A stretch of DNA of 64,000 nt from Escherichia coli (GTDB lineage Bacteria > Pseudomonadota > Gammaproteobacteria > Enterobacterales > Enterobacteriaceae): the NCBI RefSeq assembly GCF_030384885.1, contig NZ_CP128613.1. The stretch is one strand, 5' to 3'. Shown in pieces: positions 1,675 to 47,467 of the stretch. Position 1 is the first letter of the stretch. Each line of letters starts with the position of its first letter. The notes under the pieces were generated by a model. It saw nothing but the letters and a program-made list of their open reading frames with translations. It was not told where the DNA came from and ran no database searches. Position numbers and translations under genes: made by a program.

Positions 1675-1708
1675 AAGGCCAGTCTCTTATGAGGCTGGCC
1701 TTTTTCTT
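1675..1708 (+). terminator. Rho-independent terminator after rpoS
   Basis: GC-rich hairpin ggccagtctc/gaggctggcc (1677..1700) followed by TTTTTCTTTT. Confidence 0.7.
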
Positions 1709-1778
1709 TTGTATGGGGAGTTGGTGTGTTTCGTCGCCTGGATAAGACACGTCAGCGTCCCATCCGGCAATCAACATC

Positions 1779-2186
1779 CTATTTGCTCATCATCTTGCGC
1801 ACCAGCTGCATAAACAGCTCCTGCTCTTCTCCACTCAAACGCCCCAAAAATTCCTCATCCACACTGTCGCCAATCGGTATCGCCGCAGCAAGTACCTTTT
1901 CTCCTTCGGCAGTCAGCCAGACAAAGCGTCGCCGCTTATCAGCGGTGTCATGTTCACGTCTGACTAAGCCACGATTTTCCATTCTTGCCAACATTTCTGC
2001 CAGCGTTGCTTTGGTGCTGACGGCTGCTTCCATCAGTGCCACCTGTTCGATACCAGGTTTATCAGCAATGGCGCGCATCACCGCGTACTGTGGTTTGGTC
2101 AGGTCAGGTAACTCGTGCTGCCAGCGGGCCGTATGCTGCTGAAAAAGCTGTCGTAACTGATGGAACGCTTTATTTCGTAACGCCAT
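1779..2186 (-). CDS. MarR/SlyA-family transcriptional regulator, 135 aa
   Basis: Size and winged-helix region typical of MarR family; divergent from the decarboxylase genes. Confidence 0.75.
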   Translation of the reverse strand: MALRNKAFHQLRQLFQQHTARWQHELPDLTKPQYAVMRAIADKPGIEQVALMEAAVSTKATLAEMLARMENRGLVRREHDTADKRRRFVWLTAEGEKVLAAAIPIGDSVDEEFLGRLSGEEQELFMQLVRKMMSK

Positions 2187-2301
2187 GTAAACTCCGGGCT
2201 AATTCTCTGTCGCTATCATAGCGGTTTTTCAGTGACGAAGAAGATGTTGTTACTTTTCAATCCTTGCCGCTGTGGAAATGAAGGAGTATGTTAATAATAA
2301 C

Positions 2302-2315
2302 GTTCGTATACGAAC
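2302..2315. promoter_or_regulatory. Perfect 14-bp palindrome GTTCGTATACGAAC, candidate MarR-type operator upstream of ecdB
   Basis: Read directly; lies 18 bp upstream of the ecdB ATG in the divergent intergenic region. Confidence 0.4.
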
Positions 2316-2332
2316 AATTAAGAGAGTAAGCA

Positions 2333-2926
2333 ATGAAACTGATCGTCGGGATGACAGGGGCTACCGGTGCGCCTCTTGGTGTGGCATTACTGCAAGCGCT
2401 GCGGGAGATGCCGAATGTCGAGACTCATCTGGTGATGTCGAAGTGGGCGAAAACCACTATTGAACTGGAAACGCCTTACAGCGCTCGCGATGTTGCCGCC
2501 CTCGCTGACTTCAGCCATAACCCGGCAGATCAGGCTGCGACCATCTCTTCCGGCTCCTTTCGTACCGACGGCATGATCGTTATTCCATGCAGTATGAAAA
2601 CGCTCGCCGGTATCCGCGCTGGTTACGCCGATGGTCTCGTAGGGCGCGCGGCGGACGTCGTGCTCAAAGAAGGCCGCAAACTGGTGCTGGTGCCGCGTGA
2701 AATGCCGCTTAGCACCATCCATCTCGAAAATATGCTCGCACTTTCGCGCATGGGCGTGGCGATGGTGCCGCCGATGCCTGCCTTTTATAACCATCCCGAA
2801 ACGGTAGATGACATTGTCCACCACGTGGTAGCCCGCGTGCTGGATCAATTTGGCCTCGAACATCCTCACGCCAGGCGCTGGCAAGGGTTGCCGCAGGCCC
2901 GGAATTTTTCTCAGGAGAATGAATAA
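2333..2926 (+). CDS. ecdB: UbiX-like flavin prenyltransferase (phenolic acid decarboxylase subunit B), 197 aa
   Basis: N-terminal MKLIVGMTGATGA flavoprotein motif and UbiX/Pad1 length; first gene of a B-C-D operon. Confidence 0.8.
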   Translation: MKLIVGMTGATGAPLGVALLQALREMPNVETHLVMSKWAKTTIELETPYSARDVAALADFSHNPADQAATISSGSFRTDGMIVIPCSMKTLAGIRAGYADGLVGRAADVVLKEGRKLVLVPREMPLSTIHLENMLALSRMGVAMVPPMPAFYNHPETVDDIVHHVVARVLDQFGLEHPHARRWQGLPQARNFSQENE

Positions 2927-4353
2927 TGGCATTTGATGATTTACGCAGCTTCTTACAGGCGCTTGATGACCACGGCCAGTTACTGAAAATCAGCGAAGAG
3001 GTGAACGCGGAACCGGATCTGGCAGCCGCTGCCAACGCCACCGGGCGTATCGGCGACGGCGCGCCCGCGCTGTGGTTTGATAATATTCGCGGCTTTATCG
3101 ATGCCCGCGTTGCAATGAACACCATCGGTTCTTGGCAGAACCACGCAATTTCTCTCGGTCTGCCGCCAAACACCCCGGTTAAAAAACAGATTGATGAGTT
3201 TATCCGCCGCTGGGATAACTTCCCGATAGCCCCGGAGCGCCGTGCGAATCCTGCCTGGGCGCAGAACACCGTCGATGGCGACGAGATCAATTTGTTCAAT
3301 ATCCTGCCGCTGTTTCGTTTAAACGATGGCGATGGCGGTTTCTATCTCGACAAAGCGTGCGTGGTTTCCCGCGATCCGCTCGATCCGGATAACTTCGGCA
3401 AGCAGAACGTCGGCATCTATCGCATGGAAGTGAAGGGTAAGCGTAAGCTCGGCCTGCAACCGGTGCCGATGCACGATATCGCCCTGCATCTGCATAAAGC
3501 GGAAGAACGTGGTGAAGATTTGCCAATTGCCATCACGCTGGGTAACGATCCGATCATCACCCTGATGGGCGCCACCCCGCTGAAATATGATCAATCGGAG
3601 TACGAAATGGCGGGCGCGCTACGCGAAAGCCCGTACCCGATCGCCACCGCCCCGCTGACCGGTTTTGATGTGCCGTGGGGTTCAGAAGTGATCCTCGAAG
3701 GGGTTATCGAAAGCCGCAAACGTGAAATCGAAGGGCCGTTCGGTGAGTTTACCGGGCACTACTCCGGTGGGCGCAACATGACCGTAGTGCGCATCGATAA
3801 AGTCTCTTACCGCACCAAACCGATTTTTGAATCGCTCTATCTCGGCATGCCGTGGACCGAAATCGACTACCTGATGGGGCCTGCCACCTGCGTGCCGCTT
3901 TACCAGCAGTTGAAAGCCGAGTTCCCGGAAGTGCAGGCGGTGAACGCTATGTACACCCACGGCCTGCTGGCGATTATCTCCACCAAAAAACGCTATGGCG
4001 GCTTTGCCCGCGCAGTGGGCCTGCGTGCGATGACCACGCCGCACGGTCTGGGTTATGTGAAGATGGTGATTATGGTCGATGAAGACGTTGACCCGTTCAA
4101 CCTGCCGCAGGTGATGTGGGCGCTCTCGTCGAAAGTGAACCCGGCAGGCGATCTGGTGCAACTGCCAAATATGTCCGTGCTGGAACTCGACCCAGGCTCA
4201 AGCCCGGCGGGGATCACCGATAAGCTGATTATCGACGCCACCACGCCTGTCGCCCCGGACAACCGTGGTCACTACAGCCAGCCGGTGGTGGACTTACCGG
4301 AAACCAAAGCCTGGGCTGAAAAACTGACCGCTATGCTGGCCGCACGTAAATAA
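2926..4353 (+). CDS. ecdC: UbiD-family phenolic acid (4-hydroxybenzoate/vanillate-type) decarboxylase subunit C, 475 aa
   Basis: UbiD-family size and sequence character; start overlaps ecdB stop (translational coupling). Confidence 0.8.
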   Translation: MAFDDLRSFLQALDDHGQLLKISEEVNAEPDLAAAANATGRIGDGAPALWFDNIRGFIDARVAMNTIGSWQNHAISLGLPPNTPVKKQIDEFIRRWDNFPIAPERRANPAWAQNTVDGDEINLFNILPLFRLNDGDGGFYLDKACVVSRDPLDPDNFGKQNVGIYRMEVKGKRKLGLQPVPMHDIALHLHKAEERGEDLPIAITLGNDPIITLMGATPLKYDQSEYEMAGALRESPYPIATAPLTGFDVPWGSEVILEGVIESRKREIEGPFGEFTGHYSGGRNMTVVRIDKVSYRTKPIFESLYLGMPWTEIDYLMGPATCVPLYQQLKAEFPEVQAVNAMYTHGLLAIISTKKRYGGFARAVGLRAMTTPHGLGYVKMVIMVDEDVDPFNLPQVMWALSSKVNPAGDLVQLPNMSVLELDPGSSPAGITDKLIIDATTPVAPDNRGHYSQPVVDLPETKAWAEKLTAMLAARK

Positions 4354-4363
4354 GGAGAACAAG

Positions 4364-4600
4364 ATGATTTGTCCACGTTGTGCCGATGAACAGATTGAAG
4401 TGATGGCGAAATCGCCGGTGAAAAATGTCTGGACGGTCTACCAGTGCCAGCATTGCCTTTATACATGGCGCGATACTGAACCGCTACGTCGCACCAGCCG
4501 CGAACATTATCCCGAAGCCTTCCGTATGACGCAGAAAGATATTGATGACGCACCGATGGTGCCGAGCATTCCGCCGCTGCTGGCGGAAGGTAAGCGCTAA
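4364..4600 (+). CDS. ecdD: Small decarboxylase subunit D (BsdD/YclD-like), 78 aa, Cys-rich
   Basis: Small ORF with CPRC ... CQHC motifs immediately after the UbiD gene, as in bsdBCD-type operons. Confidence 0.65.
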   Translation: MICPRCADEQIEVMAKSPVKNVWTVYQCQHCLYTWRDTEPLRRTSREHYPEAFRMTQKDIDDAPMVPSIPPLLAEGKR

Positions 4601-4602
4601 AT

Positions 4603-4631
4603 AAAAGGTCCGATGCCCATCGGACCTTTTT
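4603..4631. terminator. Bidirectional rho-independent terminator between convergent ecdD and ygbN
   Basis: Stem ggtccgat/atcggacc with loop gccc, flanked by AAAA and TTTTT. Confidence 0.7.
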
Positions 4632-4638
4632 ATTAAGG

Positions 4639-6003
4639 TCAAATTACCGCCCATACGCACCAGGTAATTAAGAATCCGGTAAAACCGAGAATGGTCGTTA
4701 ACACTGTCCAGGTTTTCAGACCGTCTGCTACCGACAACCCCAGATATTTGGTCACAATCCAGAACCCTGAGTCATTAATATGTGACGCGCCAAGCCCACC
4801 AAAGCAGGCTGCCAGCGTCACCAATACGCACTGAATCGGATTCAATCCCATCACAGCTTCTGAGAGTAACCCGCCGGTTGTCAGGATTGCTACGGTTGCT
4901 GACCCCTGCGATGCACGCAGCGCCAGTGAAATAATAAATGCGGCTGGTAACAGAGGCAGGTCAATCATTTGTAGCATGTTGGCAAGGGCTTTGCCGACGC
5001 CCGATTCCACCAGCACTTTGCCAAATACCCCTCCAGCACCAGTAACCAAAATCACTACCGCCGCAGTGGGAAGGGCTGAGCCCATAATGTCGCTGGTGTG
5101 TTGTAAGCTCCAGCCGCGACGTAAAGCCAATAACCAGAATGCCAGCACCAGCGCAATCATTAGAGCTACCATTGGTGAGCCGATCAGCTGTAGCGTACCA
5201 AGCAGGGGATGCGAAGGCGGCATCAGTGTTGCGGAAACCGTACCCGCCATGATAATCGCGATAGGAATAACAATTAGCGAGGTGACCAGCGCGACGCCCG
5301 GTGGATTTATTTTATCGCTTAATTTTGTCGCGCCTTCCTCACTGGCCGGAGCCAGTTGCATCTGTTCCAGTACTTCCACCGACATCGCATATTGGCGCTT
5401 ATTGATTATTTTCGCTGCAAAGTAGCCAACAATCCCTACGGGAATAGAAATCGCAATACCGATGATGGTTAGCCAGCCGATGTCTGCGTGGAGTAACCCC
5501 GCTGCGGCGACAGGGCCTGGATGCGGCGGTACCGCCACATGAACAGTTAGCATGATTCCAGCGACAGGCAGGCCAAATTTGAGTGGCGATATTTTGGCAA
5601 CCTTGGCAAAACCGTAAATGATTGGCGCAAGAATAATAAAGCCGACATCAAAGAAGACGGGAATACCGAGGAAGAACGCTGCCAGAGTCAGCGCAGCGAT
5701 AGTTCGTTTGTCACCTAACTTGCGACTGAAATAATTAGCCAGTGACTCTGCACCACCAGAGTGTTCGATCATACGCCCCAGCATAGCGCCCAGACCAATA
5801 ATAATAGTGACGGAACCAAGCACACCGCCCATCCCGGCGATCATCACTTTACCCACTTCGCCCGCCGGTATACCCGCCGCAAGTGCGACTAACAGGCTGA
5901 CGAGGAGCAGAGCAACGAATGGTTGTACCTTTGCCTTGATGACCAGCAGCAACAGCATGATTACGCCAGTTAACGCAATGCATAACAATGTAATTGTGGA
6001 CAT
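4639..6003 (-). CDS. ygbN: GntP-family permease (putative threonate/tetronate transporter), 454 aa
   Basis: Polytopic membrane protein of GntP type; position and length match ygbN. Confidence 0.85.
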   Translation of the reverse strand: MSTITLLCIALTGVIMLLLLVIKAKVQPFVALLLVSLLVALAAGIPAGEVGKVMIAGMGGVLGSVTIIIGLGAMLGRMIEHSGGAESLANYFSRKLGDKRTIAALTLAAFFLGIPVFFDVGFIILAPIIYGFAKVAKISPLKFGLPVAGIMLTVHVAVPPHPGPVAAAGLLHADIGWLTIIGIAISIPVGIVGYFAAKIINKRQYAMSVEVLEQMQLAPASEEGATKLSDKINPPGVALVTSLIVIPIAIIMAGTVSATLMPPSHPLLGTLQLIGSPMVALMIALVLAFWLLALRRGWSLQHTSDIMGSALPTAAVVILVTGAGGVFGKVLVESGVGKALANMLQMIDLPLLPAAFIISLALRASQGSATVAILTTGGLLSEAVMGLNPIQCVLVTLAACFGGLGASHINDSGFWIVTKYLGLSVADGLKTWTVLTTILGFTGFLITWCVWAVI

Positions 6004-38045: not shown

Positions 38046-39481
38046 TTTGCCTCCGATGCCAGTTCGTCAAAGACGTCTTTGCCGATGGAGCATTCCGGGC
38101 ACAGGAAGTTATCCGGGACTTCACTCCACGGCGTGCCTGGCGCAACGTCCTGCATTGGCTCGCCTTTTGCCGGATCGTAAATCCACTGGCAGACACTGCA
38201 CTGCATCCGCGGACCGAGATCAGCCGTCGTGGCGGCACAGGTTTCTTCTTTAACCACCGTATTCACCGTGCTTTGCGGCAGCGGCGAAAGCGCCCACTGA
38301 CGGGCAATTTCACGACCGTGTTCACGGCATAACTCCAGCGCGTCCTGGTCCGGTCGCCATTTGGCTTTCAGGCTAAGCGACATTTCGAAACCTGCATCCT
38401 GCAGGCGTGTGGAAAGACGATCCACCGCACCGCCGCTCCAGCCGTGAGAGCCGAAAGCACTGGCGCGTTTGTTACGGAAGCGTAATCCGGTCATCTCCTC
38501 CACCAGCCCGGCGATTTTCGGCATCATCACGTTATTCATCGTCGAAGTGCCAACCAGCACGCCTTTTGAGCGGAAGACATTGGTCAGGATTTCGTTTTTA
38601 TCGCTTCGGGCGACGTTGAAAATTTTCACCGCTACGCGCGGGTCGGTTTCCGCAATCCCCTGGGCGATAGCGTCAGCCATCATGCGGGTGTTATTCGACA
38701 TGGTGTCGTAGAAAATGGTGATTCTGTCTTCCTGATAATCCGCCGCCCATTTCAGGTACAGCTCGACAATTTGCGTCGGGTTATCGCGCCACACCACACC
38801 GTGAGAGGTGGCAATCATATCGACCGGCAAGTTAAAGCCCAGGATCTCGGTGATTTTCGGCGTTACCAGGCGGCTGAACGGTGTCAGGATATTGGCGTAG
38901 TAACGCTGGCACTGCTCGAAAAGCTCGGTCTGATCCACTTCATCGTTGAACAGATGCTCGTCGCAGTAGTGCTGACCGAAAGCATCGTTACTGAACAGCA
39001 CCGCGTCGCCCGTCAGGTAAGTCATCATGCTGTCCGGCCAGTGCAGCATTGGCGTTTCGACAAAAATGAGCTGTTTGCCGTTGCCGATATCCAGCGTGTC
39101 GCCGGTTTTCACCACGTTGAAATTCCACTCTGGATGATGGTGATGACCATTTATTGAGTCGATAGCGTTGGCAGTACAATAGATCGGCGTATCGGGAATT
39201 TGCGCCATCAGTTCGGTCAGCGCCCCGGCGTGGTCCTCTTCAGCATGGTTAATCACGATGTAATCGATATCCGCCAGATCGATTTCATTACGCAGGTTCT
39301 GCACAAATTCGCGGCTGAATTTATGGTCGACGGTGTCGATCAGCACGTTTTTTTCTTCGCGAATGAGGTAGCTGTTGTAGCTGCTGCCGCGCAGCGTTTT
39401 ATATTCTGTACCGTGAAAATCACGCACTTCCCAGTCACGTTGACCAACCCAATGAATGTTATTTTTCACCACAATAGACAT
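38042..39481 (-). CDS. norV: Anaerobic nitric oxide reductase flavorubredoxin NorV, 479 aa
   Basis: Metallo-beta-lactamase-like, flavodoxin and C-terminal rubredoxin (CxxC) modules. Confidence 0.9.
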
Positions 39482-39546: not shown

Positions 39547-39599
39547 TTTTTATCTAATTGTTTTTAATATATAAATTAATTTATGCTCATTAATGAGTA

Positions 39600-46381: not shown

Positions 46382-47467
46382 ATGTTCAAGCGTCGTTATG
46401 TAACATTGCTTCCCCTTTTTGTGTTGCTTGCCGCCTGTAGCAGCAAGCCAAAACCTACTGAGACTGAAACGACCACCGGAACGCCGTCTGGCGGCTTCCT
46501 GCTTGAGCCGCAGCACAATGTGATGCAGATGGGCGGTGACTTCGCTAACAACCCGAATGCCCAGCAGTTCATCGACAAAATGGTGAGCAAACACGGTTTC
46601 AATCGTCAGCAGTTGCAGGAAATTCTCTCCCAGGCGAAACGTCTGGATTCGGTATTGCGGCTGATGGATAACCAGGCACCAACCACATCGGTGAAGCCGC
46701 CATCAGGTCCGAACGGCGCATGGCTGCGTTATCGCAAAAAATTTATTACGCCGGACAACGTGCAAAACGGCGTGGTTTTCTGGAATCAGTATGAAGATGC
46801 GCTGAATCGTGCGTGGCAAGTGTATGGCGTACCGCCAGAAATTATCGTCGGGATTATCGGCGTTGAAACCCGTTGGGGGCGCGTGATGGGGAAAACCCGT
46901 ATCCTCGATGCGCTGGCAACGTTGTCATTTAACTACCCACGCCGCGCGGAGTATTTCTCTGGTGAGCTGGAAACCTTCTTGCTGATGGCGCGCGACGAGC
47001 AGGACGATCCGCTCAATCTGAAAGGCTCGTTTGCCGGTGCGATGGGCTACGGTCAGTTTATGCCATCGTCTTATAAACAATATGCAGTGGATTTTAGCGG
47101 CGACGGGCATATCAACCTGTGGGATCCGGTTGATGCCATCGGTAGTGTGGCGAACTATTTTAAAGCGCACGGCTGGGTGAAAGGTGATCAGGTTGCGGTG
47201 ATGGCAAACGGTCAGGCTCCAGGCTTACCGAATGGCTTCAAAACCAAGTACAGCATTTCACAACTTGCTGCAGCTGGACTAACGCCACAGCAGCCGCTGG
47301 GCAATCATCAGCAGGCCAGCTTACTGCGCCTGGATGTTGGCACCGGTTACCAGTACTGGTACGGTTTGCCGAACTTCTACACTATCACCCGTTACAATCA
47401 CAGCACCCATTACGCAATGGCCGTCTGGCAGTTAGGACAAGCCGTGGCACTGGCGCGCGTTCAGTAA
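46382..47467 (+). CDS. mltB: Membrane-bound lytic murein transglycosylase B, 361 aa lipoprotein
   Basis: Lipobox LLAACSS after signal peptide; start at internal ATG (MFKRRYVTLL). Confidence 0.9.
   Translation: MFKRRYVTLLPLFVLLAACSSKPKPTETETTTGTPSGGFLLEPQHNVMQMGGDFANNPNAQQFIDKMVSKHGFNRQQLQEILSQAKRLDSVLRLMDNQAPTTSVKPPSGPNGAWLRYRKKFITPDNVQNGVVFWNQYEDALNRAWQVYGVPPEIIVGIIGVETRWGRVMGKTRILDALATLSFNYPRRAEYFSGELETFLLMARDEQDDPLNLKGSFAGAMGYGQFMPSSYKQYAVDFSGDGHINLWDPVDAIGSVANYFKAHGWVKGDQVAVMANGQAPGLPNGFKTKYSISQLAAAGLTPQQPLGNHQQASLLRLDVGTGYQYWYGLPNFYTITRYNHSTHYAMAVWQLGQAVALARVQ

Follow-up and report, generated by a model that had tools for sequence, protein, structure and literature searches.

The 14-bp dyad between hosA and hadBCD of Escherichia coli is the published operator of HosA

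What is a perfect 14-bp palindrome doing between two divergent genes? The window analysed here is a whole stretch of 64,000 nucleotides of Escherichia coli DNA (contig NZ_CP128613.1). At 2302-2315 it reads GTTCGTATACGAAC, which is its own reverse complement. The dyad cannot be extended because the next bases out, C2301 and A2316, are not complementary. It is contained in a spacer of 146 bp (2187-2332) between a minus-strand gene of the MarR family and the plus-strand gene hadB, also called ecdB, and 17 bases (2316-2332) separate it from the hadB ATG at 2333. An earlier note on this DNA drew attention to the palindrome and proposed it as a candidate phenolic-acid-responsive operator of the divergent MarR-type regulator. 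Its description of the sequence as a perfect palindrome in the shared intergenic region is accurate, and the 18 bp it gave for the distance to the ATG agrees with ours to within one base, depending on how one counts.

The palindrome alone is little proof of anything. Perfect palindromes of at least 14 bp are not unusual in this window: there are 4 of them, and 200 first-order Markov randomisations of the window give an expectation of 5.4 +/- 2.5. The other three are at 38068-38081, 39571-39584 and 47348-47361 (CAAAGACGTCTTTG, ATAAATTAATTTAT and TACCAGTACTGGTA), and their number is what chance would give. The same randomisation rate corresponds to about 0.012 perfect palindromes in a 146-bp spacer that has been specified beforehand. 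Across the 64-kb window there are no further copies of the dyad with 0 or 1 mismatch, and the three matches with 2-3 mismatches are no more than expected by chance. The significance of this dyad comes from its conservation across genera and from the published binding of the identical sequence.

It is worth considering the genes before the site. The locus belongs to the rpoS-mutS variable region, with nlpD and rpoS upstream, and the order is rpoS, hosA (minus strand), dyad, hadB, hadC, hadD, ygbN. The MarR-family gene occupies 1779-2186 on the minus strand and encodes 135 aa. Its product is identical to PDB 8aga, 'Transcriptional regulator HosA', at 130 of 134 aligned residues (E = 2e-82), and six further PDB entries of HosA were matched as well. 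The divergent MarR gene is therefore hosA, which encodes a repressor sensing 4-hydroxybenzoate. For EPEC, fliC is a reported HosA target. RefSeq calls it only a MarR-family winged-helix regulator and annotates no binding site at the dyad. The MarR and SlyA family models match it weakly, with 27 bits against cut-offs of 240 and 120. A preprint on the structure of HosA puts His9, Phe15 and His18 at the 4-hydroxybenzoate pocket and hinge. All three residues are found in the translated hosA of the window.

On the plus strand, the had genes encode subunits B, C and D of a non-oxidative hydroxyarylic acid decarboxylase, each of them scoring above its curated cut-off. Subunit B is a UbiX-type flavin prenyltransferase encoded by hadB (2333-2926; NCBIfam NF041206 VdcB, 312 bits, cut-off 290), and RefSeq agrees with this assignment. 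The UbiD-type decarboxylase, subunit C, is encoded by hadC, or ecdC (2926-4353; NF041204 VdcC, 788 bits, cut-off 650), and the small subunit D by hadD, or ecdD (4364-4600; NF041205 VdcD, 120 bits, cut-off 30). The stop codon of hadB overlaps the start codon of hadC (TAATG), which fits a single operon. The RefSeq annotation of the hosA-had region is consistent with these model matches. Strain 2013C-4282 matches window positions 1700-4700 with 100% identity. Among 5426 complete E. coli genomes, 2379 have the locus at a coverage of at least 80%, and it is always chromosomal.

With the regulator named, the dyad can be compared with what has been published on HosA. PMC6261655 describes a '14-bp TFBS of HosA' from E. 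coli UMN026 and calls it palindromic. HosA binding was demonstrated there by EMSA, and 4-hydroxybenzoic acid (4-HBA) led to dissociation. The oligonucleotides of that paper, TAATAATAAC-GTTCGTATACGAAC-AATTAAGAGA, are the same as window positions 2292-2325, and in 2380 complete E. coli genomes its probe maps to the locus described here. The supplementary oligonucleotides run ...TAATAATAAC-motif-AATTAAGAGAATAAACAATGAG, and the one named T_H has exactly GTTCGTATACGAAC. It must be noted that the machine-read supplement gives the bold motif as GTTTCGTATACGAAC, which has 15 nt, on both complementary strands. We treat the extra T as a text-extraction error, because a 15-mer cannot be self-complementary while the paper states 14 bp, and because the T_H oligonucleotide and PMC6694116 both give GTTCGTATACGAAC. 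In PMC6694116 (Nat Commun 2019) the uppercase motif of dsDNA(HosA)-F is CGTTCGTATACGAACA, which is the window at 2301-2316, that is, the dyad with one flanking base on each side. This motif alone was set into unrelated flanking DNA and HosA bound to it. There p-hydroxybenzoate released the protein, and the release by structural analogues was negligible.

Both of these are biosensor papers, and for the site both refer back to Roy & Ranjan 2016 (Biochemistry 55:1120, PMID 26818787). As that study is summarised in the HosA structure preprint, the palindrome lies downstream of the transcription start of the operon, HosA represses both itself and the HAD operon, and 4-HBA disrupts DNA binding and induces the operon. 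The dyad is the HosA operator itself, already published, and we claim no novelty for it. Binding of HosA, its release by 4-HBA and repression of the operon have been published for identical DNA from another E. coli strain. The proposal of a phenolic-acid-responsive operator was correct, with HosA as the MarR-type regulator and 4-HBA as the phenolic acid. Even the EMSA with and without phenolic acid that had been suggested as a check is already in print for this sequence (PMC6261655), again from the other strain.

Conservation is the other line of reasoning. Taking one genome per species gave 80 hosA loci, with HosA identities of 58-99%, from more than 20 genera including Escherichia, Citrobacter, Salmonella, Klebsiella, Enterobacter, Kluyvera, Kosakonia, Leclercia, Lelliottia, Pseudocitrobacter, Phytobacter, Pluralibacter, Atlantibacter, Superficieibacter, Cedecea, Rahnella, Erwinia, Leminorella and Mangrovibacter. 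A dyad of the type GTTCG-yryr-CGAAC is present in 79 of the 80 loci. In 78 it has 0-2 mismatches and is within 260 nt upstream of hosA. These 78 loci and the window make up 79 tabulated sequences, in which dyad positions 2-5 (TTCG) and 10-14 (CGAAC) never vary and 74 of which have G at position 1. The variation is in the central four positions, which are T/c, A/g, T/c and A/g. The table thus tells us that the central yryr tolerates change and GTTCG/CGAAC does not. The spacer around the dyad is otherwise poorly conserved and diverges freely. Divergent lineages of E. coli, O157:H7 among them, retain the dyad, and one isolate reads GTTCGTGTACGAAC.

The position of the dyad is also informative. 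In most loci 15-19 nt separate it from the hadB ATG, and its distance to the hosA ATG varies between about 110 and about 570 nt. In Enterobacteriaceae bacterium LSJC7 (L066) a perfect dyad has kept a distance of 17 nt to the hadB ATG despite an insertion of 430 bp. The insert itself (~1935-2430 in that locus, ~430 bp) is AT-rich and separates the hosA-proximal element from the had promoter. Eight loci have no hadB (L046, L061, L062, L065, L071, L076, L078 and L080), and there the dyad is directly before hadC. Such hadB-less operons are found in Pluralibacter, Superficieibacter, Cedecea, Erwinia, Mangrovibacter and some Rahnella. Since hadB is missing from these operons, the supplier of the prenylated flavin must be encoded elsewhere.

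The one exception acts as a natural control. In Rahnella perminowiae (L077, 1-5393) there is no recognisable dyad and there are no had genes beside the hosA homologue, which has 63% identity, so the site and the had genes are absent together. A divergent ORF of 496 aa takes the place of the had genes in this locus. Another locus deserves a comment for a different reason. L001 is on a contig labelled as a Citrobacter sp. MAG (DXKH01000072.1), its HosA is 99% identical and its hosA-hadB spacer is identical to that of the window. The same MAG also holds a typical Citrobacter-type hosA locus (L014). The L001 contig is probably E. coli sequence that was binned into the wrong genome.

Where is the dyad relative to the promoter? 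A generic sigma-70 scan of 1600-2500 reported no promoter at its threshold, and phylogenetic footprinting across species was used instead. From it we infer the exact hadBCD promoter and start site in the window strain. Of 81 sequences, 79 have the pattern TTGnnn-17-TAnnnT upstream of the dyad, 77 of them with a spacer of 17 nt. In the window the predicted -35 box is TTGCCG (2264-2269, plus strand), whose TTG is conserved in ~90-99% of aligned sequences, and the predicted -10 box is TATGTT (2287-2292, plus strand), conserved as TAnnTT. From the end of the predicted -10 to the dyad there are 7-10 nt in 76 of 79 sequences, and 9 nt in the window. If transcription starts about 7 nt beyond the -10, the start would be near 2299 and the dyad would cover about +3 to +16. 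This predicted start would agree with the literature, as summarised in the preprint, that puts the site downstream of the start. The ribosome-binding site of hadB is GAGAG (2322-2326, plus strand), 6 nt before the ATG, and GAGG is conserved here in most other genera. The dyad overlaps neither the predicted -35 nor the predicted -10. The earlier note's general remark that MarR-family proteins bind palindromes overlapping promoters is refined by this placement, in which the dyad would be beyond both boxes and just downstream of the predicted start.

The hosA promoter can be approached in the same way. In 59 of 81 sequences the hosA ATG is preceded, at a distance of 25-30 nt, by an element yTATsATAr, and still more of them have its ATsATAG core. 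In the window this conserved element is CTATCATAG (2214-2222), within an inverted repeat at 2209-2225, and the hosA strand reads TATGAT or TATCAT across genera. It is probably the -10 box of hosA, with TATGAT at 2215-2220 on the minus strand. We also considered CTATCATAG as a second HosA site and rejected it, since it has no CGAAC half-site. The likely hosA -10 is about 90 bp from the dyad, and this leaves the reported autorepression of hosA unexplained.

A different second site is seen in other genera. In 37 of the 80 hosA loci there is a HosA-like site of the GATCGTGTACGAAC type, with an intact right arm CGAAC and a degenerate left arm (L006, L008, L016-L019, L024, L026, L029-L032, L034-L037, L039-L056, L059, L060 and L063). 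Its distance upstream of the main dyad is 56-57 bp, and about 4 nt lie between its end and the -35 TTG of the had promoter. The genera are Klebsiella, Enterobacter, Kluyvera, Leclercia, Lelliottia, Pseudocitrobacter, Phytobacter, Pluralibacter and a few others. The site is absent from the Escherichia (including the window), Salmonella, Citrobacter and Rahnella loci of the scan. At its place in the window, about 2245-2258, Escherichia matches 3 of 14 bases by eye, and the Escherichia spacer is ~25 bp shorter there. The pattern suggests a two-operator design in the group of Klebsiella, Enterobacter and Kluyvera, of which the Escherichia lineage would have lost one site together with the ~25 bp of spacer, a reading that we regard as less likely than not. 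Escherichia, Salmonella and Citrobacter would accordingly work with one HosA site, at about +3 to +16. If the reading were true, it could account for differences between genera in the tightness of repression of the operon or in hosA autoregulation. The many genera with both sites offer a natural two-site variant.

We argue that the dyad is the operator of the divergent HosA, that HosA bound there represses hadBCD and that 4-HBA releases it. We give this reading a probability of roughly 0.93. One winged-helix dimer of HosA would sit on the two half-sites GTTCG and CGAAC, and the 9 bp between their centres suits a single dimer of this kind. Bound at about +3 to +16, just downstream of the start, HosA would block either open-complex formation or promoter escape. 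The 4-hydroxybenzoate decarboxylase operon would stay off for as long as HosA is bound. When 4-hydroxybenzoic acid, the substrate of the enzyme, enters the cell, it would bind HosA and HosA would leave the DNA. Its release would allow transcription of the operon that decarboxylates 4-hydroxybenzoic acid. The site has the features one would look for in a HosA operator, namely the published motif, the cognate HosA, the architecture of the locus and conservation across genera. It also resembles MarR operators in general, being a dyad in the upstream region of its regulator with half-sites about one helical turn apart. The overlap with -35 and -10 boxes that is usual in MarR operators is not seen here with the predicted boxes, which bears on the detail of the mechanism and not on the identity of the site. 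Sequence identity with the published site, the regulator being HosA and conservation of the site across genera are the direct observations of this analysis.

There are other ways to read the dyad. The simplest is that it is a functionless chance palindrome, which the unremarkable number of such palindromes in the window (4 against 5.4) would allow. This does not fit a dyad found in 79 of 80 loci whose arms are conserved while the flanking intergenic sequence diverges, nor its loss together with the had genes in L077, nor the published binding of HosA to the identical sequence. Conservation and published binding have already refuted it, and we give it next to no weight. One can also imagine that the dyad works as RNA. 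It would then form a hairpin, in the 5' leader of hadB or as a terminator read from the other strand, through which translation, the stability of the mRNA or termination is controlled. The dyad is within the predicted leader, folding of the leader gives a 5-bp stem with a 4-nt loop at the dyad, and a terminator scan flags the minus strand, where a 6-pair stem is followed by TTATTATTAA. However, the leader fold has only -6.5 kcal/mol (z = 0.07), and 99 of 200 shuffled sequences fold at least as well. The arms are fixed in more than 20 genera without compensatory changes, which is the signature of protein recognition and not of a pairing constraint. The hairpin also stops short of the ribosome-binding site, and naked duplex DNA binds HosA in vitro (PMC6261655, PMC6694116). 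We reject the RNA hairpin or terminator as very improbable, since the fold is no better than shuffled and the arms do not covary.

A further reading is that the dyad serves mainly for autoregulation of hosA, or for another paralogue of MarR or SlyA, with control of hadBCD being secondary. Autorepression by HosA is reported in the preprint's account of Roy & Ranjan 2016, MarR proteins commonly regulate both divergent genes, and the minus strand has a -10-like TATTAT (2299-2294) immediately next to the dyad. Against this, the distance of the dyad is fixed to the first had gene and not to hosA. The conserved hosA -10-like element is about 90 bp away, and the literature, as the preprint presents it, reports that the HAD operon is repressed through this site. 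We think it highly unlikely that hosA or a paralogue is the main business of this dyad. Our preferred reading remains HosA acting here on hadBCD. In practical terms, the dyad can be labelled as the HosA operator in the annotation and the MarR gene can be named hosA. The pair of HosA and its operator is already in use as a biosensor for 4-hydroxybenzoate, a breakdown product of parabens.

How does this site compare with known systems? The bsdBCD/vdcBCD operons of Bacillus and Streptomyces encode subunits B, C and D that are homologous to the hadBCD products. The Bacillus decarboxylase operon has a LysR-type activator, BsdA, and not a MarR repressor. These systems do not imply an operator of the GTTCGTATACGAAC type. 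PcaV of Streptomyces coelicolor is a protocatechuate-responsive MarR repressor of an operon for the catabolism of aromatic acids, and it is released by a hydroxybenzoate-type ligand. It is the next-best solved homologue of HosA (PDB 4fht, 4g9y; E = 5e-16). It is a distant one, and its operator sequence, target operon and organism differ from those of HosA.

The classical MarR/marO operator and the SlyA-type operators are like this dyad in that they are short, located in divergent intergenic regions, bound by a winged-helix dimer and relieved by a phenolic ligand. MarR sites usually overlap the -35 and -10 boxes. The dyad of the window is unlike them in this respect, since it would be just downstream of the predicted start. 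The HosA operator of hosA-hadBCD in E. coli UMN026 has the same dyad and immediate flanks (2292-2325 in the window), the same locus, the same regulator and the same divergent arrangement. The two strains differ only outside the dyad, where the window has GGAGTATGTT against GGCGTATTTT upstream and GAGAGTAAGCAATG against GAGAATAAACAATG downstream.
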